DNA of 64,000 nt from Alphaproteobacteria bacterium (GCA_965248835.1 CBDFLJ010000002.1:2144001-2208000), one strand, 5' to 3'; positions 17,098 to 61,150 are shown, counted from the stretch's first letter. Notes: generated from the sequence alone by a model not told the origin. Translations and numbers: made by a program.

Positions 17098-17525
17098 GCG
17101 CGCCGCTGAAACTCTCCGCCAGGGACGAGGAAGACCTCGCAATCATCTCCTCATGCCTGCAGGACGCGATCGTGCCGGTCGTCGAGATGACATTCCTGCC
17201 CGATGAGCAATCTTTCCTCTTCATCGCCAGCCGGTTCGGCTGGGAGGGCACGGAAGGCGATATGGCCGGGCGCAAGGTCTACGAGCGCATAAACTGCGCG
17301 GTTCGGTTCAACGGCGTCGCCTCGGTCAAGCGCCGCGACATCGACCAGACCGGCCGGGACGCGATCCTGTCTTTGCTCGCCATTCGGCCCAACCGGGAGT
17401 ATATCGACCTGATTTTTTCGGGCGGCGGCATGATCCGGCTGGCGGCCGGCGCGATCGATTGTCGATTGGACGACCTCGATCATCGCTGGCCGACCCGCTG
17501 GAGGCCGAGCCACGATCAGGGTTGA
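17094..17525 (+). CDS. DUF2948 family protein
   Basis: [28 protein letters not shown] and [11 protein letters not shown]; usual position between murA and the his genes. Confidence 0.88.
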
Positions 17526-17531
17526 GCGGGC

Positions 17532-18203
17532 ATGCCGGATCAGGATGCGAACGACAGGCTGGTGATCGCCGTGCCGCGCGGCCGGATCCTGGACGAGCTC
17601 AAGCCGCTTCTCGACCTGATCGGGATCGAGCCCGAGCCGGCCTTCGCGCGCGAGGACTCCCGGCAGCTCGGGTTCACCACCAATATCGACGGCGTGATGA
17701 TCATCCGCGTGCGCAGCTTCGACGTCGCGACCTTCGTCGCCTTCGGTGCCGCCCACCTGGGGGTCGCCGGCAACGACGTGCTGATGGAATTCGACTACCC
17801 GGAGCTCTACGCACCGCTCGACCTCGGTATCGGGCGCTGCAGGATGGCGGTCGCCGCCACCGCCGAACTGCTGGCCGCCGAAGACCCGGCGCGGTGGAGC
17901 CACGTCCGCGTGGCGACCAAGTATCCGGCGATCACGCGGCGCCATTTCGCCGGGCGCGGCGTGCAGGCCGAATGCATCAAGCTCAACGGAGCCCTGGAGC
18001 TTGCCCCCCGGCTCGGCCTGTGCCGGCGCATCGTCGACCTGGTTTCGACCGGCGACACGCTGCGCGCCAACGGGCTGATCGAAGTCGAGACGATCGCCGA
18101 GATCAGCTCGCGGCTGGCGGTCAACCGCGCCGCCCTCAAGACCCGGCCGGAGGAGATCGGCGGCTGGATCGAGCGGTTCCGGGACGCGGTCGATGCCGCT
18201 TAG
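17532..18203 (+). CDS. hisG: ATP phosphoribosyltransferase, short form
   Basis: [24 protein letters not shown] and [16 protein letters not shown] motifs; 223 aa with no regulatory C-terminal domain (HisZ-dependent type). Confidence 0.96.
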
Positions 18204-19488
18204 GCTCGACGCCGGCGCGGCCGGGTTCGAACGTGCCTTCACCGCCTTCGTCGAGAGCCGGCAGGCCGCCGAACCGGACGTCGCCGCCGAGGTCGCCCGG
18301 ATCATTGCCGACATCCGTGCGCGCGGCGATGATGCGCTGCTCGCCCTGACCGCGGTGCACGACCGCTTTCATGTCGAGGCCGCCGCCGCGCTCGCGGTCC
18401 CCGCCGCCGAACTCAACGGCGCGCGCGCGGCATGCGCGCCCGATGTGATCGAAGCCCTCGAACTCGCCGCCGCGCGCATTACCGCCTTCCATGACCGGCA
18501 GCTTCCCGGGCCGCTGTCCTGGCGCGACGCCGCGGGTGTCAACCTGGGGGCGCGCTGGACCCCGCTCGAAGCGGTGGGCATCTACGTGCCCGGCGGCACG
18601 GCTGCTTATCCGAGCTCGGTGCTGATGAACGCCATCCCCGCCCGGATCGCCGGTGTGGAGCGGATCGCCATGGTGGTGCCGGCGCCGGGGGGTCGTCTCA
18701 ACCCGCTCGTCCTGGCCGCCGCAGCAATCGCCGGCATCGAAGAGGTCTGGCGGATCGGCGGCGCTCAGGCAGTCGCGGCGCTGGCCTACGGCACCGCGAC
18801 CATCGCCGCGGTCGACAAGATCACCGGGCCCGGCAATGCCTATGTCGCCGAAGCCAAGCGTCAGGTCTTCGGCAAGGTCGGCATCGACCTGATCGCCGGT
18901 CCATCGGAGATCCTGGTGGTCGCCGATGCCGACAATGACCCGGAATGGATCGCCGCCGACCTGCTCTCCCAGGCCGAGCATGACGCGCGCGCCCAATCCG
19001 TCCTGATCACCGACGATGCCGGCTTCGCCGATGCGGTCGTCGCGGCGGCCGAGGCGCTGCTCGCGCGGCTGCCGCGCGCGAACATCGCGCGGGCGAGCTG
19101 GACGGCGTGCGGCGCGGTGATCGTGCTGGCAGCGCTCGATGACGCGCCGGCGCTGATCGACCGCATCGCACCGGAACACCTGGAGCTCGCCTGCGAGGAC
19201 CCGGAGGCGCTGGCTTCGCGGGTCCGCCATGCCGGAGCGATCTTCCTTGGACGCCACACGCCGGAGGCGATCGGCGACTATGTCGCGGGGCCCAACCATG
19301 TCCTGCCGACCTCGCGCAGCGCGCGGTTCGCATCGGGCCTGGGCGTACTCGACTTCCTCAAGCGCACGACGCTCGTGGGCTGCGATGCGGCCTCGCTGGC
19401 GGCGATCGGACCGGCGGCGGTCAGGCTCGCCGAGGCCGAGGGGCTCGATGCTCACGCGCTGTCATTGTCGATCCGGCTGGGCAGCTAA
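18193..19488 (+). CDS. hisD: Histidinol dehydrogenase
   Basis: [48 protein letters not shown] and [13 protein letters not shown] motifs. Confidence 0.97.
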
Positions 19489-31013: not shown

Positions 31014-31199
31014 GTGACGGGCCAGGATGATCCGCTACGGGCGTTGCTGAACGGCCCGGTCTCGGTGGTCAACATCGGATTTGAGGGCTTCGCTGCCGTG
31101 CTGAGGCAGCAGGAGGTGCCGGTGGTCCAGGTCGATTGGGCGCCGCCGGCCGGCGGCGATCCTCGTCTGATCGACCTGCTGGAGAAGCTGGGGGCGTGA
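31014..31199 (+). CDS. Stand-alone FdrA C-terminal domain protein
   Basis: LLNGPVSVVNIGFEGFAAVLRQQEVPVVQVDWAPPAGGDPRLIDLL matches the FdrA/YahF tail (viNiGl..F......vvq.dW.PPAGG); likely GTG start with GGGAG RBS. Confidence 0.82.
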   Translation: MTGQDDPLRALLNGPVSVVNIGFEGFAAVLRQQEVPVVQVDWAPPAGGDPRLIDLLEKLGA

Positions 31200-32467
31200 T
31201 GGCGCAGAGCGCGACCGCAGAGGCCATCGAAGCCGCCAACGCCGAAGCGGTCCGCCGGATGTTGGCGGCCGAACCGGTTCTGGTCGACGTCGCCACCGCG
31301 GGCGCGGTCATCGACGGGCTTGGCGAGCATATGATCCTCCACGCCGGCCCGCCGATCGCATGGCAGGCGATGAGCGGTCCGATGCGCGGTGCGGTCGCCG
31401 GCGCGATCGTGCTGGAGGGCTGGGCACCGGATCTCACTGCGGCGGGCGCGCTCGCAGCCGGCAACGGCATCGCATTCCATCCCAACCATCACTTCGACGC
31501 CGTGGGACCGATGACCGGCATGATCACCGCCTCGATGCCGGTGATGGTGGTCGAGAACCGGGCCTTCGGCAACCGCGCCTTCTGCACCCTCAACGAGGGG
31601 CTGGGCAAGGTGATGCGGTTCGGCGGCAACGATGATGAGGTCCTTGCCCGGCTGCGCTGGCTGGGCGAAGCGCTGGCGCCGGCGCTTTCGGGCGCGCTCG
31701 GGCGGTCGGGCGGGGTTGCGTTGAAGGCGCTTATCGCGCGCGGCCTGTCGATGGGCGATGAAATGCACCAGCGCAACGTCGGCTGCACAAGCCTGTTCCT
31801 GCGCACCATCGCGCCCGCCATGGCGCGCGCCGTCGAGGACAGGGAGGAACTGGCGACGCTCTTCGACTTCATCTGCGGCAACGACCAGTTCTTCCTCAAC
31901 ATCGCCATGGCGATGGGCAAAGCGATCATGGACCCGGTGCGCGGCATCGCGGCATCGAGCATCGTCACCGCGATGTGCCGCAACGGCACCGAGTTCGGCA
32001 TCAGGGTCAGCGGGCTGGGCGATCGCTGGTTCACCGCGCCGGTCGAGATGCCGCGCGGGCTGTATTTCCCTGGCTTCACCGAGGCCGATGCCAACCCGGA
32101 CCTGGGCGATTCGACCATCATCGAAACCGTGGGGCTGGGCGGGTTCGCGATGGCGGCCTCGCCCGCGGTCGCCGGCTTCGTCGGCGCCGGCACCGCAGCC
32201 GAGGCGCTCGATTACACCAGGACGATGTACGAGATCACGGTTGCACGGAACGGCGAATGGTCGATCCCGGGCCTCGATTTCGCCGGCGTGCCCACCGGGA
32301 TCGATATCCGCAAGGTTGTCGCGACCGGGATCGCGCCGACGATCAACACCGGCATCGCCCACCGCGAGCCCGGCATCGGCCAGGTCGGCGCCGGCGTGGT
32401 CCGCGCCCCGATGGCCTGTTTCGAGCAAGCCTTGGCGGCCTTCGCCGAGACGATGGGCGTGGCATGA
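31199..32467 (+). CDS. ylbE: DUF1116 / YlbE (AllG) family, oxamate carbamoyltransferase subunit
   Basis: ILHAGPPI.W..MSGPMRGA, NEGLGKVMRFG, MGDEMHQRN, NPDLGDS and INTGIAHREPGIGQVGAG motifs. Confidence 0.9.
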   Translation: MAQSATAEAIEAANAEAVRRMLAAEPVLVDVATAGAVIDGLGEHMILHAGPPIAWQAMSGPMRGAVAGAIVLEGWAPDLTAAGALAAGNGIAFHPNHHFDAVGPMTGMITASMPVMVVENRAFGNRAFCTLNEGLGKVMRFGGNDDEVLARLRWLGEALAPALSGALGRSGGVALKALIARGLSMGDEMHQRNVGCTSLFLRTIAPAMARAVEDREELATLFDFICGNDQFFLNIAMAMGKAIMDPVRGIAASSIVTAMCRNGTEFGIRVSGLGDRWFTAPVEMPRGLYFPGFTEADANPDLGDSTIIETVGLGGFAMAASPAVAGFVGAGTAAEALDYTRTMYEITVARNGEWSIPGLDFAGVPTGIDIRKVVATGIAPTINTGIAHREPGIGQVGAGVVRAPMACFEQALAAFAETMGVA

Positions 32468-33960
32468 ACGAGCCGGTCGTCGGGACCAGAACTCGGGCCG
32501 GGTTCTATCTCGATTCGGTGGCCCTGATGCGTATTTCGAGTCAGGTCGCCGCGCGCGCGGATGTGCTCGATGCCTCGCTGATGATCGGCAGCCCGTCGAA
32601 CAAGGCGCTCCTGCGCGAGGCCGGCCTGTTCGACGAGGCGGCGGGTGCGGCCGGCCCCAACGACCTGATCGTCGCGGTCCGCGCCCGCGATGAAGCAGCG
32701 CTGGCGGCCGCGCTGGCGGCCGCGGAAGCCGCGTTGCAGATGCCGGCGGCCGGCGGCGAGGCGGCCGGTGGCGGCTGGCGTCCGCGCACGCTGGAGACCG
32801 GGCTGGAGGCGCTGCCCGGCGCAAACCTCGCGATCATTTCCGTTCCGGGTGATTTCGCGGCCCGCGAGGCCCGCCGGGCGCTGCGGCGCGGCCTGCATGT
32901 GATGCTTTTTTCCGACAACGTGCCGGTCGACGACGAGGTCGCGCTCAAGGATATGGCGGCCGAGCGCGGTCTGTTGATGATGGGGCCGGATTGCGGGACG
33001 GCGATCCTGGCCGGCGTACCGCTGGGGTTCGCCAACGTCGTCCCGCGCGGCGATATCGGTCTGATCGCCGCCTCGGGAACCGGGCTGCAGGAAGTCGCCT
33101 GCCTGATCGCGCGGGCGGGCGGTGGGGTCAGCCACGCCATCGGCGTCGGCGGGCGCGACATGGGCCAAGCGGTCGGCGGGCGGATGACCCTGGCCGCGAT
33201 CGATGGCCTGGACCGGGATCCCGAGACGCGCCGGATCGTGTTGATCTCCAAGCCGCCGGACCCCGCCACCGCGCAGCGGATCGCCGAACGCATCGCAAGA
33301 AGCCGAAAGCATTTCACGGTCTGCTTCATCGGCATGGCGCCAATGGACCTGCCCGGCAACGCCACCCAGGTGGCGACACTCCGCGCGGCCGCTTCCGATG
33401 CGATGGATGAGGATGGGATCGGCCGGACGCCGGGGCTCCGTGAGGCGCTGCCGCAGGCACGAGCGGGCGGCCTGCGTGGCCTGTTTGCCGGCGGCTCGCT
33501 TTGCGCCGAAGCCCAGGCGGTGCTGATCCAGGCCAGGATCCAGGCCGCCTCCAACGTCGCGATCCCCGGCGCCAAGCCGATCGCGCAAGCCACGGACGGC
33601 ATGGCGGTGCTGATCGACCTTGGCGCCGACGAATACACCCGCGGGCGGCCCCATCCGATGATCGAGCCGGCCGTGCGCGAGGATCCGCTGGCCCAGGCGA
33701 TGGCCGACCCGGGCGTCGCCGTGGTGCTGGTCGACGTCGTCATCGGCTACGGCGCCCACGAAGACCCCGCGGGCCGGCTGGTCGCAGCCCTTGGCGGGCG
33801 GGCACCCGCTGCGCCGCTGGTGATCGCCTCGGTATGCGGCACCGAGGCGGACCCCCAGGTGCTGTCCGATCAGATCGGTATCCTGCGCGCGGCGGGGGTA
33901 TGGGTTGCCGCGTCCAACGCCGAAGCCGCCGAGCTCGCGGCCGCCCTGCTGTCGGGCTGA
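32464..33960 (+). CDS. fdrA: FdrA (AllF) acyl-CoA synthetase-like subunit lacking its C-terminal tail
   Basis: YLDSVALM, ISVPG, MLFSDNV, MGPDCGT, ASGTGLQE, LISKPP and DLGADEYTRGRPHPMIEP motifs. Confidence 0.92.
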   Translation: MNEPVVGTRTRAGFYLDSVALMRISSQVAARADVLDASLMIGSPSNKALLREAGLFDEAAGAAGPNDLIVAVRARDEAALAAALAAAEAALQMPAAGGEAAGGGWRPRTLETGLEALPGANLAIISVPGDFAAREARRALRRGLHVMLFSDNVPVDDEVALKDMAAERGLLMMGPDCGTAILAGVPLGFANVVPRGDIGLIAASGTGLQEVACLIARAGGGVSHAIGVGGRDMGQAVGGRMTLAAIDGLDRDPETRRIVLISKPPDPATAQRIAERIARSRKHFTVCFIGMAPMDLPGNATQVATLRAAASDAMDEDGIGRTPGLREALPQARAGGLRGLFAGGSLCAEAQAVLIQARIQAASNVAIPGAKPIAQATDGMAVLIDLGADEYTRGRPHPMIEPAVREDPLAQAMADPGVAVVLVDVVIGYGAHEDPAGRLVAALGGRAPAAPLVIASVCGTEADPQVLSDQIGILRAAGVWVAASNAEAAELAAALLSG

Positions 33961-34820
33961 GTGCCGAGCGCCAAGACGGCGCCGGCCAGGGCATCCCAGC
34001 CGGAGCTGTGGCCGATCCGATCGATCGCGGCCAGACCGGCATCGAGCGCCGCATCATCCATGCGATCGAGCGCGGCCAGCGTCTCGTGCAGGGCCGCAGC
34101 GCCCTCGCCGCCGGCCGCCGCGGCGAGATGGGAAAGGCTGATCCGCCCGGTCGCCCGGCGGGCACGCGCCATGACGGCGCCGGCGAGGCGATCGGCAGCC
34201 GCGTAGCTTGCCGCCGCCCTAAGCGCGATCATCATGCCGCCCAGGAAGTCATCGCCCGAGGGCGTAAGTCCCGGACCGAGGCCGACCAGCCGTTCGATGG
34301 CGTCACCGGGCGGCGCCTCTGCCGCGCCGCGGCCAAGCCAGGCGGCAAGTGCGTCGATGCCGGGTGCGGCGCGATCGAGCAGCGGCGACGAGGCAGCCCT
34401 GCCGCGCACCGCCAGCGGCGCCAAGCCGTCCGCCCGCGCATACCGCGCCGCCTTGTCGGCGAGAGCCTCGAGTGCCGGGCGAGTCACACGGATCGGCCCC
34501 GCCGAGGGCGCGTAGAGGCGCGCTGCGCCGATCTCGATGACCGGCCCGCCGGGCAATCGGCACCCGGCGCCGGTGGGCGTGAGGTGGTCGCCGGCCCGAA
34601 ATCGGAGCGCCGGCCAATCCGGTGCCAACGCGTTGAGCGGTCCGGCGCCGATCGACATCGGGCCGAGGCAGGCAAGGGCGCCGGTCGCGTTCTCGCACAG
34701 ATAGAGGCTGCGCTCGAAGGCCGCGAACACCACGCCCGGCCGCAGGGCGAGGCCCGCCATGACACACGCCGCATGGCGGCCGATCAGCGCGATTCGGATC
34801 GTCCCGGCAGCCTCAGCCAT
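33870..34820 (-). CDS. DUF2877 / YlbF (AllH) family protein
   Basis: LVGLGPGLTPSGDDFLGG and IGHSSGWD motifs; the 3' end reads 91 nt into the antisense strand of fdrA. Confidence 0.88.
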   Translation of the reverse strand: MAEAAGTIRIALIGRHAACVMAGLALRPGVVFAAFERSLYLCENATGALACLGPMSIGAGPLNALAPDWPALRFRAGDHLTPTGAGCRLPGGPVIEIGAARLYAPSAGPIRVTRPALEALADKAARYARADGLAPLAVRGRAASSPLLDRAAPGIDALAAWLGRGAAEAPPGDAIERLVGLGPGLTPSGDDFLGGMMIALRAAASYAAADRLAGAVMARARRATGRISLSHLAAAAGGEGAAALHETLAALDRMDDAALDAGLAAIDRIGHSSGWDALAGAVLALGTQPDSRAAASSAASALDAATHTPAARRIPI

Positions 34821-35775
34821 CGGACAGAATTTGGGTGCCCGACTCCCCGGTCAGCGCCTCCAGCGCCTCTTCGAGATGTCCGATGATCACGCGCTTGCCG
34901 CCGCGCTCGATGAAATCGATCGCGGCTTCGATCTTGGGACCCATGCTGCCCGGCGGGAACTGGCCTTCCGCCAGGTGGCGGCGGGCATCGGCGAGCCCGA
35001 TCGTCGCCAGCTCCTGCGCGCTCGGCGTGCCGAATTCGATCGCCACGCGGCCGACCCCGGTCAGGATCATCAAGGTGTCGATGCCCAGAACGCTGGCCAT
35101 CAGCGCGGAGGTGAGGTCCTTGTCGATCACCGCCTCTATCCCTGTGCGCACGCCGTTGTTTGCGCGCAGCACCGGGATTCCGCCGCCGCCGCCGGCGATC
35201 ACGACCGCGCCGGCGCGCGACAGATCGCGGACCAGCGATATGTCGGCGACGTGCTTGGGCCGCGGCGATGGCACGACATGGCGCCAGCCGCGCCCGGAGT
35301 CCTCGCGCATCGCCCAGCCGGTCTCCTTGGACAGGGCTTGGGCCTCGTCCTCGGAATAGAAATATCCGATCGGCTTGGTCGGCGCGGCGAAGGCCGGGTC
35401 GTCCGGGTCGACCTCGACCTGGGTCAGCAAGCACACGACGTGGCGCGGATCGCCGACCTCGCGCAGCGCGTTCTCCATTGCCTGCATCAGGAGATAGGCG
35501 ATGCCGCCCTGGCTGTGCGCGACACAGATATCGAGCGACATCGGCGTGACCCGGTCCCGGGCGATCGCCTGGCGCATCAGGATCTTGCCGACGACCGGGC
35601 CGTTGCCGTGGGTGATCACCAGCTCGCGCCCCAGCCGCATCAGCGGCAGCAGCGAACGGCCGGCCTTCTCGGCATAGTGCTGCTGCTGCTTGACGGTGCC
35701 GGAGATCCCCTCCGGATGGATCGCATTCCCGCCGATTGCAACCAACAGCCGATCGGGGATAGGAAACCGCGCCAA
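34813..35775 (-). CDS. arcC: Carbamate kinase
   Basis: Likely TTG start with AGGAG RBS; AIGGNA, THGNGPVVG, PTKPIG, GWRHVVPSP, AVIDKD and GSMGPKIEAA motifs. Confidence 0.93.
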   Translation of the reverse strand: MARFPIPDRLLVAIGGNAIHPEGISGTVKQQQHYAEKAGRSLLPLMRLGRELVITHGNGPVVGKILMRQAIARDRVTPMSLDICVAHSQGGIAYLLMQAMENALREVGDPRHVVCLLTQVEVDPDDPAFAAPTKPIGYFYSEDEAQALSKETGWAMREDSGRGWRHVVPSPRPKHVADISLVRDLSRAGAVVIAGGGGGIPVLRANNGVRTGIEAVIDKDLTSALMASVLGIDTLMILTGVGRVAIEFGTPSAQELATIGLADARRHLAEGQFPPGSMGPKIEAAIDFIERGGKRVIIGHLEEALEALTGESGTQILSDG

Positions 35776-35895
35776 TAGCCAACTCCTGGACGTGGTTGCA
35801 TGTACGGCCTTGGGAGGGTACCCCATCAGCGCCTCGCTTGACGACGCGCAAATGTTCTGGATCGATCACGCGCTGCGTTGCCGCCAGGCCAGGCT

Positions 35896-35939
35896 AGGCC
35901 GGGCCGGACATCCAAACAGGCCGGGCCGGACATCCAAAC
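35896..35939. repeat. Perfect 2 x 22-bp tandem duplication AGGCCGGGCCGGACATCCAAAC
   Basis: Units at 35896-35917 and 35918-35939, just upstream of the aminotransferase start. Confidence 0.93.
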
Positions 35940-35956
35940 AGGGAAGTATGCGTTCA

Positions 35957-37201
35957 ATGTCGCTACTCTTCGAGGACCTCAACCCGCCGCCGCGCCTGTT
36001 GATGGGGCCGGGGCCGATCAACGTCGATCCGCGGGTCCTGCGCGCGATGTCGATGCCCATGCTGGGCCAGTTCGACCCGGTGTTCACCAACTACATGAAC
36101 GAGGTGATGGTCCTGCTGCGCCAGGTGTTCGCGACCGGCAACCACTGGTCGCTCCTGGTCGACGGCACCGCGCGCGCCGCGATCGAGGCGATCCTGACCT
36201 CGATCATCGAGCCGGGTGATCGGGTTCTGGTGCCGGTCTCCGGCCGGTTCGGCCAACTCCTGTGCGAGATCGCTGAACGCGCGGGCGCGGATGTGCGTAC
36301 CATCGAGGCGGAATGGGGCACGGTGTTCAGCGCCGATCAGGTCGAGGATGCGCTCAAGCGCGAGCGCCCGAGGGTGGTCGCCGCCGTCCACGGCGACACC
36401 TCGACCACCATGGCCCAGCCGCTGGATGAAATCGGCCCGCTATGCCGGCGCTACGATGCACTGCTGTTCGTCGATGCGACCGCGACGCTGGGCGGCATGC
36501 CGTTCCCGGTCGACGACTGGCAGATCGACGCGGCTTCGGCGGGTCTTCAGAAATGCCTTTCCGGCCCGTCGGGCTCTGCGCCGATCACCTTCAACGACCG
36601 GGTGGTCGAGGTTCTTCGTCGACGCCGCCACATCGAGCGCGGCATCCGGCCGGAGGGGTTCGACGCCGGCGAGGGCTTGCAGATCCGCTCGAACTATTTC
36701 GATCTGCCGATGCTGATGGACTACTGGTCGGAGATGCGGCTGAACCACCACACCGAGGCGACCTCGATGCTCTATGCGGCGCGCGAATGCTGCCGGATCG
36801 CGCTGGACGAAGGGCTTCAGGCGCGGTTCTCCCGCCACGACCTCGCGGGCCGCTCGCTGGTCGCCGGCATCCAGGCGATGGGGCTGTCGATCTTCGGCGA
36901 CGTCGACAACAAGATGCCCAACGTCACCGGCATCCTCATCCCCGACGGAATCGAAGGCGACCGGGTGATCAAGGACATGCTGGAGGATTTCGGAATCGAG
37001 ATCGGCACCTCCTTCGGCCAGCTGCGCGGCAAGATCTGGCGCATCGGCGTAATGGCCTATAACTGCCGCAAGGACGCGGTGCTGACGACCCTGGCGGCGT
37101 TCGAGGCGACGCTTCGGCGGCAGGGATTCGCAGCCCCTCCGGGCGCCGGCGTCGATGCGGCACTGGCGACGTGGCAAGCCGGTGCGGCGGGCTCAGATTG
37201 A
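35957..37201 (+). CDS. pucG: Class V aminotransferase, (S)-ureidoglycine aminotransferase (PucG/HpxJ) type
   Basis: LNPPPRLLMGPGP, GQFDP, GDTSTTM, AGLQKC (PLP Lys), SNYFDL, RLNHHTEAT and IEIGTSFG are diagnostic of the PucG/HpxJ subfamily. Confidence 0.85.
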   Translation: MSLLFEDLNPPPRLLMGPGPINVDPRVLRAMSMPMLGQFDPVFTNYMNEVMVLLRQVFATGNHWSLLVDGTARAAIEAILTSIIEPGDRVLVPVSGRFGQLLCEIAERAGADVRTIEAEWGTVFSADQVEDALKRERPRVVAAVHGDTSTTMAQPLDEIGPLCRRYDALLFVDATATLGGMPFPVDDWQIDAASAGLQKCLSGPSGSAPITFNDRVVEVLRRRRHIERGIRPEGFDAGEGLQIRSNYFDLPMLMDYWSEMRLNHHTEATSMLYAARECCRIALDEGLQARFSRHDLAGRSLVAGIQAMGLSIFGDVDNKMPNVTGILIPDGIEGDRVIKDMLEDFGIEIGTSFGQLRGKIWRIGVMAYNCRKDAVLTTLAAFEATLRRQGFAAPPGAGVDAALATWQAGAAGSD

Positions 37202-37343
37202 CCCCGACCAGCGGGGACGGTAGCCTCCGGTCCGACCCGAACAGCGCCGGACCGCATTTTCGATTGCAGGCGCGCCGATCGCAACGGCGGCGGCCGAATG
37301 AGCCTCGCCCGGCGGCCGGGTGGAGACAGACGGGAGCTATCCG

Positions 37344-38471
37344 ATGGCACAGAAAAAAGCGGTCTTCCTCGACCGGACCGGCTACAAGACGCCCCGGCTC
37401 GACCTCTGGGAGCCGGTGGTCATCCCCAAGGAGGATATCGACGAGGAGGTCGGCCGGCTCGCCGGTCTCGACCGGCCGGACAACGGTCGGCGGCACTCGA
37501 TCCTCGCCCATCCCGACTGGCAGAAGCTCGGCGTCGGCCCCGGCCTGCAGCCCGGCATCAGGGTGACACTGGAGGTGCTGCGCCCGGGCGAGCAGTCCGC
37601 GCCGATCCGCCACAACTCCACCCAGGTGAATTTCTGCATCGGCGGCAGCGGCCATTCGATCGTCAACGGCAAGCGCTTCGATTTCGCCCGCTACGATGTC
37701 TGGAATTTTCCCTCGATGGCGACCTATTGGCACGTCAACGACGGCAAGGAAATCCAGGTCAGGCTGAGCTACTCCAACGCTCCGCTGCTGGAAAAGATGA
37801 ACGTCCATATCGTCGAGGAGGAACCGCCGCCGCTGATCGAGGCCGTCGGCGGCGCCGATGCGCAGGCCGAAGCCGAGCCGGACGAGCGCGACGTCAACCC
37901 CTATGGCACCTTCCAGCTCACCGAGGACGGCGCCTGGCTGATGCCCTACGAGACGCTGATCAACCCCTCGGCGGTCGATTCCAAGGCGCTGCAATGGCCG
38001 TGGCAGGACGTCAAGCGCGAACTCGACAAGCTCCAGGCGCTGGGCCGGGACTATCGCGGGCGCAGGCTCTACCTCCTGTTCAATCCGATGACCGGCCGGT
38101 TCAACGGCACCACTCCCAGCTTCTTCGCCACCATGACGGTCCGCCCGGCCAAGATCGTCGACCGCCCGCACCGCCATGTCTCGGCCGCGATCAACTACTA
38201 TTTCTCGGGCCGCGGACGCTCGACCGTCGAAGGCAAGGTCTATGAATGGAAGGCCGGAGACCTGATGCTGTCGGCGCCCGGCTGGGCGGTCCACAACCAC
38301 GCCTCCTACGACGAGCAGGTCTACGAGCTCACCATCCAGGACCAGCCGCTCAACATCGTCATGGAGTCGCTGCTGTGGCAGGAGGACCTCAAGCACCCGT
38401 GGTCGGTGCTGGGCGCCAATGTCGGCTTCGGGACCAACGCCGAGCAGGTCAAGAGCGCCTTGGGCGAATAA
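37344..38471 (+). CDS. Bicupin, gentisate 1,2-dioxygenase-like
   Basis: Two cupin repeats; the C-terminal one carries RPHRHVSAAINY and WAVHNH; LTIQDQP. Confidence 0.75.
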   Translation: MAQKKAVFLDRTGYKTPRLDLWEPVVIPKEDIDEEVGRLAGLDRPDNGRRHSILAHPDWQKLGVGPGLQPGIRVTLEVLRPGEQSAPIRHNSTQVNFCIGGSGHSIVNGKRFDFARYDVWNFPSMATYWHVNDGKEIQVRLSYSNAPLLEKMNVHIVEEEPPPLIEAVGGADAQAEAEPDERDVNPYGTFQLTEDGAWLMPYETLINPSAVDSKALQWPWQDVKRELDKLQALGRDYRGRRLYLLFNPMTGRFNGTTPSFFATMTVRPAKIVDRPHRHVSAAINYYFSGRGRSTVEGKVYEWKAGDLMLSAPGWAVHNHASYDEQVYELTIQDQPLNIVMESLLWQEDLKHPWSVLGANVGFGTNAEQVKSALGE

Positions 38472-38478
38472 CCCGGCC

Positions 38479-39378
38479 ATGATGACGCTGCCCAAGGGTT
38501 CTCTGCGCGGCTCGATCCCGCCCCTGATCACCCCGTTCCGGCAGGGCGAGGTCGACTATGCGGCGTATGCCCGCATGGTCGAGTTCCAGATCGACAACGG
38601 CTCCCACGGCATCCTGGTCAACGGCACCACGTCGGAGCCCTCGACGCTCACGCTGGAAGAGCGCAACCGGGCCGTCGATGTCGCGGTCGAGGCCGCGGCG
38701 GGCCGCGTGCCGATCGTTGCCGCGACGGGCTCGCAGTCCTTCGCGGAGACCCGGGCGCTTACCCGGCATGCCGCCAAGGCCGGCGCGGACGCGCTGCTGA
38801 TCGTCACGCCCTACTACATCCGGCCGCCGCAGCGCGGGCTGGTCGCCTACTACCTGGAGCTCGCCAAGGAAACCGACCTGCCGTGGATGATCTATCACAT
38901 ACCCGGCCGGGCGGCGGTCTCGGTGAGCCTGGAGACCATGTGTGAGATCGCCGAGAAGTCATCGACCTTCGTCGGCATGAAGCACGCCGTGGACGATCTC
39001 GGCTTCGTCAGCCAGTGCCTTGACCGGCTGGGCATGGATCTGAGGATCTTCGTCGGGCTCGAAGACCTCAGCTATCCGATGATGGCCGTCGGTGCCTGCG
39101 GGCTGATGAACGCGGTGGGAAACCTCCAGCCCGCGCGGCTTGCCGCGTTGTGCGATGCCATCTGGTCGGGTGATCTGAAACAGGCCCAGGCGCTCCATTA
39201 CGCGCTGTTCGAGATCAACCAGGCGGTGTTCTACGACACCAACCCGATCGCGATGAAATACATGATGAAGCGCCTGGGCATCATTCCCGAGAACGAGCAC
39301 CGGCTGCCGATGGTCCCGGCGACGCCCGAGCTCGAACGCCGCCTCGATGGCGTGCTGGAGCGTGCGGGCCTGATCTGA
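38479..39378 (+). CDS. DapA/class I aldolase family (HpaI-like / dihydrodipicolinate synthase-like)
   Basis: NGTTSEPSTL, VTPYY, IYHIPGRA, GMKHA (Schiff-base Lys) and DTNPIAMK motifs. Confidence 0.87.
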   Translation: MMTLPKGSLRGSIPPLITPFRQGEVDYAAYARMVEFQIDNGSHGILVNGTTSEPSTLTLEERNRAVDVAVEAAAGRVPIVAATGSQSFAETRALTRHAAKAGADALLIVTPYYIRPPQRGLVAYYLELAKETDLPWMIYHIPGRAAVSVSLETMCEIAEKSSTFVGMKHAVDDLGFVSQCLDRLGMDLRIFVGLEDLSYPMMAVGACGLMNAVGNLQPARLAALCDAIWSGDLKQAQALHYALFEINQAVFYDTNPIAMKYMMKRLGIIPENEHRLPMVPATPELERRLDGVLERAGLI

Positions 39379-58780: not shown

Positions 58781-58845
58781 ATTGGCGGTCCGGTTAAACT
58801 CACACCATCCAAACCGCCATTCCATTGACCGACGGGGCGCTCTCG

Positions 58846-60463
58846 ATGATTCAAACCAGACCGTTATTCCGGCTCACCGCGGAGGTCGCAACGCCGCAGG
58901 TCGCCCCGAACGGCCCGTACGGCGATCGCCGTTTCATCCCGGTAACCGGCGGCGCATTTGCCGGTGAACGGCTTTCCGGCCGGATCCTCCCCGGCGGCGC
59001 TGACTGCCAGCTGATCCGGCCGGACGGGATCGCCGAGCTCGACGTGCGCGTGACGCTGCAAGCCGAGGACGGCGCGACGCTTTATGCGTGCTCGCAGGGG
59101 CCGCACACCATGCGCGAGCTGCTGGCCAACAACGTCTTCCACGTGCCCGAATCGGCGATCCGCGTGGTCAGCCCCGATGTCGGCGGCGGGTTCGACATGA
59201 AGGCCGACCCCTATCCCGAGGACGCGCTGGTGCTGCGGGCTTCGAAACGCCTCGGCCGCCTGATCAAATGGGTGGCGACGCGGTCGGATGCGCTATTGGG
59301 CGACACCCATGCCCGCGACCAGCTGGTCTTCGCCGAGATGGCGCTGGACGCCGACGGCAAGATCCTCGGCGTGCGGGCGCGCTCCCATACGGGGCTGGAG
59401 GCGTATTTCAGCGCCGCAGTGACGGAGACCCTGATGTTCTCGCTGTCCTTCATCCCCAACGCCCATGACGTGCAGGCGATCGAGGTCACCAACAGCGCGG
59501 TGTTCACCCACACGCCGCCCAACTCGGTCTATCGCGGCGCCGGGCGACCCGAATCGATCTATCTCATCGAGCGGCTGATGGACCGCGCCGCCGCCGAAAT
59601 CGGCATCGACCCGGCCGAGCTGCGCCGCCGCAACCTGATCGCCCCGGCGGCTTTGCCCTATCACACCCCGACCCACAATGTTTACGATTCGGGCGATTTC
59701 GCCGACATGCTGGATAAGGGGCTCAAGCTCGCCGATTGGGACGGGTTCGAGGCCAGACGCGCCGCATCGGAAAAGAACGGCAAGCGCCGCGGCCGCGCGG
59801 TGATTTTCTATATCGAGCGCGGCGGCATCTTCAACGAGCGCATGGAGCTGCGCTGCGACCCGTCGGGCACGGTCACCATCGTCGCCGACAAGGCGATGCC
59901 GTTCGCCGCCATGGTGCACGGCTTCTACTTCCCCGGCGGCATCACCGACCAGTTCGGGCTCGGGCTCGAGGCGCGCGACAGCCATGCCGGCGATCCGTGC
60001 AACTTCCCCAATGGCAGCCATGTCTGCGAAATCAAGATCGATCCCGAGACCGGCAGCGCCACCATAGAGCGCTACTGCGTCATCGACGATGTCGGGCGCA
60101 TCACCAATCCGTTGATCTGCCACGGCCAGATCCATGGCGGCATCGCGCAAGGGGTGGGCCAGGCGATGATGGAGAACATGGTGTTCGACGATACCGGCCA
60201 GATGCTGTCCGGCTCCATCCTGGACTATTGCATGCCGCGCGCCGACGATTTCTGCGACATCGCCGCCGAACTCGAGGAGGTGCCCTGCGCCACCAATCCC
60301 TTGGGCGTCAAGGGAATCGGCGAGGCCGGCACCATCGGCGCGCCGCCGACCATCGTCAACGCCATCCTCGACGCGCTGCGCCCGCTCGGCATCGACCATA
60401 TCGACATGCCGGGCCACCCCCCAGCGCGTCTGGCAGGCAATTCGCGAGACGGGAGTGGGGTGA
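58846..60463 (+). pseudogene. Chimeric ORF: DUF3237 N-terminal half fused to a deleted, frameshifted CoxL/xanthine dehydrogenase large subunit
   Basis: 58846-59085 is DUF3237-like (GDRRFIPVTGG.F.GERLSGRILPGGAD.QLIRPDG.AELDVR). It continues in frame as CoxL mid-region (SQGPH, DVGGGFDMK, YRGAGRPE); the GQG segment is missing at about 59886; a +1 frameshift at about 60411 hides MPATPQRVWQAIR..* (TGA 60461-60463). Confidence 0.85.
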
Positions 60464-60541
60464 CATCGAATGAGCTACAGGCGGGGTTGCAAAGATGCCC
60501 CACGCGAAGCGGTCGGGTAGTCCGGTTGCAGCGCCGCCTAC

Positions 60542-60999
60542 ATGCTGGGCCCGGAACTGGCCTGGGGCGAGTACATCAGGCGGCGAGAGAACGTGATCTT
60601 GCTCGGCCCCTCCGGCGTCGGCAAAACCCACATCGCGCTTGCCTTCGGACTGGCCGCCTGCCAGACGGGCCTGAGCGTCCGCCTCACCACCGCTTCACAG
60701 CTGGTGCATGAACTGATGGGAGGCCCGCGACGGGAAGAGGCTGCTGCGGCCACAAGCGCAGATCGCCAAGGTCAGCCTCCCGTCGGATGGCTTACGCGGC
60801 GCCGCCAGCGCCACGGTCCGTCCTCATCGTCGACGAGCTCGGATACGTCCCGCTGTCGCAGACCGGAAGCGAACTGCTGTTCGAGATCTTCAGCCATCGC
60901 TACGGGCGCGGCGCCACCATCGTCACTTCCAACCTGCCGTCCCGGGAATGGACCTCCGTCTTCGCCAGCGAACGCCTCACCGGCGCGCTGCTCGACCGG
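60542..60999 (+). mobile_element. istB: Degenerate IS21-family helper ATPase fragment
   Basis: RENVILLGPSGVGKTHIA (Walker A), LIVDELGYVP and TSNLP..W..VF..ERLTGALLDR; frameshift at about 60718 and a 43-nt insertion at 60780-60822. Confidence 0.88.
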
Positions 61000-61150
61000 C
61001 CAGAGCTGGGTCAGCGCACGCAACGCTCCAAGATCGACCTGGGCGCAAATCCTGGTGGTGTCAGGATGACGATGACCCAGCACGTAGCCGATTTCGCCGA
61101 GTGAGGCCCCCTGGCGCACCATCTCGGCGCCGATCCGTGACGAAATGTAG
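60997..61150 (-). mobile_element. C-terminal remnant of a tyrosine recombinase (RIT-element type)
   Basis: EMVRQGASLGEIGYVLGHRHPDTTRICAQVDLGALRALTQLWP resembles RIT recombinase tails (..GASL.EI..VL.H....TT.iYAKVDl..LR..a..WP); catalytic Tyr is replaced by Cys; an FRH box lies in a shifted frame. Confidence 0.78.

Follow-up and report, generated by a model that had tools for sequence, protein, structure and literature searches.

The question raised by the locus described here is from where the three-subunit oxamate carbamoyltransferase AllFGH (FdrA/YlbE/YlbF) would receive its oxalurate in an organism that carries the genes for this enzyme next to the gene of an aminotransferase of the PucG/HpxJ type. 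The locus occupies positions 31014-37201 of a 64,000-nucleotide stretch, termed the window below and used as the base of counting, on contig 2 of the two-contig, 4.89-Mb assembly of an alphaproteobacterium (GCA_965248835.1). AllFGH and the kinase AllK of Escherichia coli were assigned in 2022-2024 (PMC9843812; PMC11326118), the oxamate carbamoyltransferase genes having been identified only in 2024 and reportedly in E. coli only, where oxalurate is made by a dehydrogenase. The cluster in the window is probably the lower half of a urea-free route of purine and allantoin degradation, in which oxalurate would be made by transamination. A preliminary description of this DNA had proposed that a transamination entry is joined here to a phosphorolytic, ATP-conserving exit, and the sequence tests made in silico speak in favour of this proposal. 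Homology and gene context are our grounds for inferring the catalytic steps, the substrate of AllFGH, the acceptor of the amino group and what becomes of oxamate.

In the proposed scheme, the upper half of the route, encoded elsewhere in the genome, would comprise xanthine dehydrogenase, HIU hydrolase, OHCU decarboxylase, the allantoinase PuuE and an M20-family amidase and would lead to (S)-ureidoglycine, the latter being formed from allantoate by the M20 enzyme acting as an allantoate amidohydrolase. The HpxJ/PucG-type aminotransferase would convert ureidoglycine and glyoxylate (or another 2-oxo acid) into oxalurate and glycine, the complex of AllF (body and separate tail), AllG and AllH would phosphorolyse oxalurate to oxamate and carbamoyl phosphate, and the carbamate kinase would use carbamoyl phosphate and ADP for the formation of ATP, NH3 and CO2. 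Oxamate would be turned into oxalate and NH3, probably by an unlinked HpxW-like protein of the gamma-glutamyltransferase (GGT) family.

Genes of the cluster

Because of the G+C content of 65-72% in the window, the reading frames were picked by third-position G+C and then confirmed with profile searches. Six genes were found in 31014-37201, namely, the tail open reading frame (ORF), allG and allF on the plus strand, allH and the carbamate kinase gene on the minus strand, and the aminotransferase gene again on the plus strand:

31014 (GTG)-31199, plus strand: FdrA/AllF tail ORF, 61 amino acids, the C-terminal segment detached from FdrA
31199-32467, plus strand: allG, DUF1116/YlbE-type subunit of oxamate carbamoyltransferase, 422 amino acids (PF06545, E 4.4e-92)
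32464-33960, plus strand: allF body, FdrA minus the last ~50 residues, 498 amino acids (NF004760, 464.9 bits, cut-off 433)
33870-34820, minus strand: allH, DUF2877/YlbF-type subunit, 316 amino acids (PF11392, E 4.8e-21, residues 178-285)
34813-35775, longest ORF to 35826, minus strand: carbamate kinase gene of the allK/arcC type (NF009007, TIGR00746, YbcF)
35776-35956, no strand: divergent intergenic region between the kinase and aminotransferase genes (alignment of 14 intergenic regions)
35957-37201, plus strand: candidate gene of an HpxJ/PucG-type (S)-ureidoglycine-glyoxylate aminotransferase (EC 2.6.1.112), 414 amino acids (PDB 3nnk and 3isl)

The gene inventory of the preliminary description was borne out by profile and PDB matches, with all the named genes in their places, and its end coordinates proved exact; only the starts of the kinase and aminotransferase genes were refined by the alignment with relatives.

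The aminotransferase belongs to the class-V family (PF00266) and was aligned without gaps over 399 residues with the structure 3nnk ('ureidoglycine-glyoxylate aminotransferase') at 561 bits; 3isl ('purine catabolism protein PucG') gave 477 bits, and the next-best structure, the alanine-glyoxylate aminotransferase AGXT 1vjo, 302 bits. Its PucG/HpxJ-type assignment is thereby upheld at the level of similarity, the protein being nearer to the solved ureidoglycine enzymes than to AGXT or SGAT. The pyridoxal phosphate-binding lysine, residue 202 as counted from the ATG at 35948, coincides in the alignments with that of 3nnk and 3isl. The start at ATG 35957, which a purine-rich stretch precedes by 10 nt, was set by the alignment with relatives, and the alternative ATG 35948 would give a protein of 417 amino acids. 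In the search of NCBIfam equivalogs, no model reached its cut-off for this protein, so that routine annotation would stay generic.

All three subunit families of the carbamoyltransferase (PF06545, NF004760 above its cut-off, and PF11392) are encoded within 31014-34820, and the profile matches and identities to E. coli proteins indicate orthology of AllF/G/H/K with the E. coli genes for oxamate carbamoyltransferase, as had been suggested earlier. AllG shows 54% identity to E. coli YlbE across the full length. The AllF body spans positions 7-493 of the 555-position FdrA model NF004760, is 42% identical to residues 7-493 of E. coli FdrA, and matches the FdrA crystal structure 3dmy with 288.6 bits. 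The tail ORF, which has an in-frame ATG upstream of its GTG (30975), matches only positions 505-554 of the same model (E 4.5e-11), with 48% identity to E. coli FdrA residues 511-554, and is aligned with chain residues 429-473 of 3dmy; a single 3dmy chain accommodates both pieces. The TGA of the tail and the ATG of allG overlap as TGATG, and the allG/allF junction contains an ATGA overlap at the allF start. In the sample of 80 allG loci introduced below, the tail ORF is found directly upstream of allG in 68 and adjoins an allG copy in 2 more; 8 of the 10 loci that have no such tail are also devoid of allF. The gene order is permuted relative to fdrA-ylbE of E. coli, the AllF body standing behind allG and the tail staying before it; in E. 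coli and in locus L148 of another genome, the tail is fused to the FdrA body.

On the opposite strand, allH is convergent with allF, their 3' ends overlapping by 91 nt (33870-33960), and its true end is uncertain, since the last ~30 codons are rich in Ala and Ser and lie outside the Pfam domain. The stop of the kinase gene overlaps the allH start by 8 nt. The kinase scores 331 bits with NF009007 (cut-off 266) and is 40% identical to E. coli YbcF; its likely start by alignment with relatives is TTG 35775 (320 amino acids), with ATG 35826 as the alternative. In the intergenic region between the kinase and aminotransferase genes, a stretch at ~35838-35856 is conserved among relatives. Shortly before the ribosome-binding site of the aminotransferase gene, at 35898-35941, 22 bp are perfectly duplicated in tandem, in this genome only; the repeat was considered as an operator and rejected as a strain-specific duplication, since it is missing in all 13 relatives aligned.

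Two genes following pucG were rejected as core parts of the pathway: a bicupin gene (37320-38471), considered, e.g., as an oxalate decarboxylase, had weak matches of the gentisate 1,2-dioxygenase type only, and the next gene (38419-39378) is of the DHDPS family. Both accompany the cluster in two same-genus relatives only. Farther downstream, at 58798-61104, an ORF unites molybdopterin-binding domains with a match to DUF3237, and a 130-amino-acid fragment of IstB, the IS21 helper, comes after it, a combination that suggests a rearrangement by an insertion sequence.

Purine genes and the supply of oxalurate

The genes assigned to the upper half of the route form a purine cluster ~0.7 Mb off on the same contig, with xdhA, xdhB, OHCU decarboxylase, HIU hydrolase, PuuE and the M20 amidase. 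PuuE reaches 481 bits (cut-off 425), and the HIU hydrolase, OHCU decarboxylase, xdhA and xdhB products are likewise above their cut-offs; the M20 amidase gene, directly upstream of puuE, matches TIGR01879 with 391 bits (cut-off 204). Between puuE and the HIU hydrolase gene (L015:15282-16493, 17457-18620; G000:C2:1467282-1470620), genes of a CoA-transferase and an acyl-CoA dehydrogenase were observed, the former of family III and formyl-CoA transferase-like (234 bits vs the cut-off of 442); these two enzymes might act on the oxalate derived from oxamate.

No match was obtained in the genome for ureidoglycine aminohydrolase AllE (TIGR03214), ureidoglycolate lyase AllA, allantoicase (a 424-bit match in the relative G028 serving as the positive control) or the urease alpha subunit. 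With AllE, AllA and allantoicase absent, the aminotransferase is the only recognisable enzyme that would take ureidoglycine further. A urea-free route fits a genome without the urease alpha-subunit gene and echoes the remark that urease-negative enterics carry AllFGH (PMC11326118).

The ureidoglycolate dehydrogenase AllD (TIGR03175) was also found nowhere above the cut-off in the genome, the best matches giving 221 and 202 bits vs 496, so that, with AllE lacking too, oxalurate would not be formed by AllE and AllD as in E. coli. The expected absence of allD extends to the 30 relatives examined, the cut-off being reached in none of the 31 genomes, while that of AllE was reached in two. Both best AllD-model matches are Ldh_2 paralogues, 31-32% identical to AllD, whose neighbours are formaldehyde, hydroxypyruvate or branched-chain amino acid genes; being below all AllD cut-offs and in unrelated neighbourhoods, they were not accepted as AllD. 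It might nevertheless be supposed that oxalurate arises mainly through such a divergent ureidoglycolate dehydrogenase from ureidoglycolate formed non-enzymatically, the aminotransferase chiefly converting glyoxylate to glycine for detoxification or glycine supply. The two Ldh_2 scores speak for this supposition, as does the fact that AllE, AllD, AllF/G/K and a PucG-like gene can share one cluster (L148), but we regard it as very unlikely: both paralogues are far below the AllD cut-offs and stand among unrelated genes, AllE is missing, and among the 80 loci an AllD-like gene accompanies allG once, as compared with 33 times for a PucG-like gene.

For the oxamate expected from the transaminative route, a GGT-family gene on contig 1 (G000:C1:960818-962404) deserves attention, since its best PDB match is 5hft (349 + 255 bits for two chains; next match 243). 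We take 5hft to be the oxamate amidohydrolase HpxW, the tool itself giving a generic name only. The gene is not linked to the cluster, and its neighbours are unrelated, none being hpxXYZ-like. The clustering of ORFs in the best 80 loci revealed a 530-amino-acid GGT-family gene after allH in 18 of them, 11 with PucG; 5hft is the best PDB match of this protein too, and the genome's own copy is 57% identical to it.

Linkage in relatives and in other Proteobacteria

Two samples of loci bear on the question of whether the linkage is peculiar to this genome. The first was the set of 30 relatives (31 genomes with the window's own), whose kinship makes the counts descriptions rather than tests; up to 20 kb were taken around all 19 orthologues of the aminotransferase. 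These orthologues, 64-89% identical, occur in 19 of the 30 relatives, and in 13 of the 19 loci the tail, allG, allF, allH, kinase and aminotransferase genes have an identical arrangement, all 13 being within the 14 aminotransferase-positive relatives of the window's own family. The six loci without the full set include L056, in which only allH is kept beside the aminotransferase, and L058, which begins at a contig end. Members of other families in the order have the aminotransferase gene next to puuE (L059, L060), 5 kb from it (L062), or in the vicinity of an allantoinase-like gene, with allH, allF, allG and the tail also present (L061). AllG is present in all 20 genomes having the aminotransferase orthologue (own included) and in 4 of the 11 without it.

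The second sample came from a pattern scan based on the AllG alignment, with one genome per prokaryotic species, which gave at least 565 relatives; the best 80 were analysed, their AllG being 67-89% identical to that of the window and the sample therefore biased towards the query. These loci belong to Alpha-, Gamma- and Betaproteobacteria, with a few unclassified metagenome-assembled genomes. The gene content within 10 kb was determined by tblastn:

PucG-like gene (at least 55% identity): 33 of 80 allG loci
allF: 63 of 80
allH: 49 of 80
kinase gene: 42 of 80
allantoate-amidohydrolase-like gene: 15 of 80, 13 of them with PucG
puuE: 4 of 80, all 4 among the 33 with PucG
AllD-like gene: 1 of 80
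AllE gene: 0 of 80

A distance of 180-340 bp typically separates the PucG-like gene from allG downstream of it, the tail ORF alone lying between them, and the commonest order is pucG-tail-allG-allF-allK-allH; among the full-flank loci that hold allF and the kinase gene, PucG accompanies them in 20 of 30. Orthologues of the aminotransferase gene adjoin puuE or, in 13 of the 33 PucG loci, allantoate-amidohydrolase-like genes, which is not the case in the genome under study.

The possibility that the adjacency is a historical accident, the divergent units being regulated and used independently with no shared pathway, was considered in the light of these counts. An HpxJ-like gene and allF/allG are megabases apart in some genomes (G427), and the upstream purine genes are unlinked here; the adjacency has, however, persisted in Alpha-, Gamma- and Betaproteobacteria through several gene orders and orientations, and PucG and AllG co-occur in 20 of 20 genomes (own and relatives), so that an accident is hardly credible. 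The arrangement recurs in 13 of the 19 loci taken from relatives, as well as in numerous unrelated Proteobacteria, and is not due to chance. The predicted co-occurrence and synteny of pucG with allFG(H) and the kinase gene were thus recovered (33 of 80 allG loci with a PucG-like gene, AllG in 20 of 20 genomes with the orthologue), and the linkage, kept in relatives and in other proteobacterial classes, is not unique to this genome.

A separate, even draw of 400 genomes from the phylum contained AllG in only nine, of which six have an HpxJ/PucG-like gene (52-61% identity) and four a true AllD. In one locus (L148, G161:C15:116001-134000), AllE, AllD, full-length FdrA, YlbE, kinase, AllC-like and PucG-like genes form one cluster, so that both routes to oxalurate are encoded side by side. 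Two loci of one genome (L149, L150) represent an HPX-like cluster and, apart from it, a cluster in the order allF-tail-allG-kinase, AllD being absent. The pucG/allFGH combination is common and occurs in several architectures, sometimes alongside the dehydrogenase entry.

Paralogues, related systems and meaning

The genome contains two further AllG genes. One belongs to a second allF/allG pair (G000:C2:1437673-1441640; L145:7649-11640), directly downstream of atzD, the gene of cyanuric acid amidohydrolase (NF052395, 387.5 bits, cut-off 360), with AllF and AllG 48% and 54% identical to those of the window. The atzD-allF-allG trio was found in six of six relatives' loci examined, five in the same order, with no allH or kinase gene nearby, which suggests that an AllFG-type enzyme may act there on the ring-opening product. 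The third AllG, solitary and 41% identical (G000:C1:66409-67626; L147:6391-7644), adjoins HupE/UreJ and M24 peptidase/creatinase-like genes. The identity to E. coli YlbE is 54.7% for the window AllG, 50.2% and 39.1% for the two paralogues, and only the window copy of the three is accompanied by allH, allK and the aminotransferase gene. In eight loci of the wider sample (L071, L073-L077, L079, L108), allG stands without allF and the tail after an Amidohydro_3-family gene, near genes of a branched-chain-type ABC transporter and an AMP-binding enzyme; the AllG of these allF-less loci probably has a different function.

Accordingly, an alternative must be weighed in which AllF/G/H/K of the window phosphorolyses some other carbamoyl or ureido compound and the aminotransferase handles a related 2-oxo or amino acid. 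It draws on the paralogues beside AtzD and alone in this genome, on the eight of 80 loci with Amidohydro_3 and ABC transporter genes and with neither allF nor the tail, and on the allFGHK genes reported beside biuret and triuret genes in nitrifiers (PMC12625717). Such a substrate change is unlikely for the window, whose AllG is the nearest to YlbE and the sole copy with allH, allK and the aminotransferase gene, while the aminotransferase scores 561 bits against the characterised ureidoglycine enzyme, and allantoate amidohydrolase-like genes and puuE share the cluster in other genomes.

The transaminative route to oxalurate and its phosphorolysis by AllFGH have several other points against them. 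AllFGH activity has reportedly been demonstrated in E. coli only (PMC11326118), and the two further AllG paralogues, one with AllF beside atzD, imply that substrate specificity varies in the family. AllH resembles E. coli YlbF in the C-terminal domain only (39%, 116 residues), the kinase is below the TIGR00746 cut-off (344.7 vs 358.25 bits), and the M20 amidase is just below that of the NCBIfam allantoate amidohydrolase (422.5 vs 452 bits). The cluster lies ~0.7 Mb from puuE and the amidohydrolase gene in this genome, a PucG-like gene is not within 10 kb in 47 of the 80 allG loci, and no regulator was identified for the cluster. With AllE and AllA absent, the source of glyoxylate is unexplained; the Ldh_2 paralogues could still be ureidoglycolate dehydrogenases; and the adjacent AllFGH is the only recognisable oxalurate consumer, no search having been made for an HpxY-type oxalurate amidohydrolase.

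Among the known systems, the Puc pathway of Bacillus subtilis (PucF, PucG) has an aminotransferase of the same family (3isl, 477 bits), the function of PucG having reportedly been described by Ramazzina et al. in 2010. No AllG match was found in the B. subtilis control genome, so that oxalurate may be disposed of differently in that organism. The HPX pathway of Klebsiella consists of HpxK, HpxJ and then HpxWXYZ (PMC12625717; PMC3560190). The route proposed here is similar to it in the entry by an allantoate amidohydrolase and an HpxJ-type aminotransferase and in the presence of an HpxW-like gene, yet oxalurate would be phosphorolysed with ATP yield instead of being split by the amidase HpxY (PMC12625717). 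The oxamate branch of the E. coli ALL pathway (AllD, AllFGH, AllK; PMC11326118; PMC9843812) has the same phosphorolytic module with an adjacent kinase, whereas the window cluster carries a transaminase gene instead, its FdrA is split into the body and the 61-amino-acid tail in the order tail-allG-allF vs fdrA-ylbE, and the organism encodes the aerobic conversion of urate to allantoin as well. In Rubrobacter xylanophilus, ureide phosphorolysis is likewise coupled to a carbamate kinase for ATP, although the enzyme is of an ATCase-like family and its substrate is allantoate (PMC4016543).

The full-text search revealed no paper linking pucG/hpxJ with the fdrA/ylbE/ylbF (allFGH) genes, an earlier statement in subscription papers being possible, and the text of PMC11326118 has no occurrence of 'aminotransferase', 'HpxJ' or 'PucG'. 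A 2025 paper places allFGHK beside biuret/triuret genes in nitrifiers without upstream purine genes (PMC12625717). The route is mentioned in a 2016 commentary, and a 2021 preprint derived from pathway maps a potential of symbionts to convert ureidoglycine into glycine and oxalurate, and the latter into oxamate or carbamoyl phosphate. The novelty claimed in the preliminary description, therefore, stands for the gene-level linkage, which was not found in print, and is weakened by the fact that the reaction sequence is already present in pathway maps, the preprint and the commentary and that the gene combination is common. The pathway recombines known modules and was foreseeable, yet, as far as searched, was not found described at the gene level.

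A broader reading, put forward tentatively as one joint claim that we consider possible and a little short of probable, would be that the pucG-tail-allG-allF-allK-allH operon constitutes a self-contained third ureide route, transaminative and phosphorolytic, to which the genes of allantoate amidohydrolase, PuuE and an HpxW-like amidohydrolase are often added, and which would release all the ureide nitrogen as glycine and ammonia, with no urea and with one ATP per allantoate. This route would be the prevailing natural context of AllFGH outside enterics, the AllD-fed E. coli version being the exception, and AllF/AllG would serve as a general phosphorolytic decarbamoylase platform with paralogues for other ureido acids, such as the atzD-allF-allG trio for the product of cyanuric acid ring opening.

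The cluster and its relatives indicate that in free-living Proteobacteria AllFGH would usually be transaminase-fed. By such a route, allantoin would be degraded without urea, one nitrogen being kept directly as glycine and one ATP being recovered. The working of this poorly understood three-subunit enzyme could be approached through the split-off tail of FdrA and the paralogues linked to AtzD. With the assignment, thousands of genes at present labelled 'alanine-glyoxylate aminotransferase family', 'acyl-CoA synthetase FdrA', DUF1116 and DUF2877 would be better annotated, and the gap in metabolic reconstructions after PucG/HpxJ would be filled.

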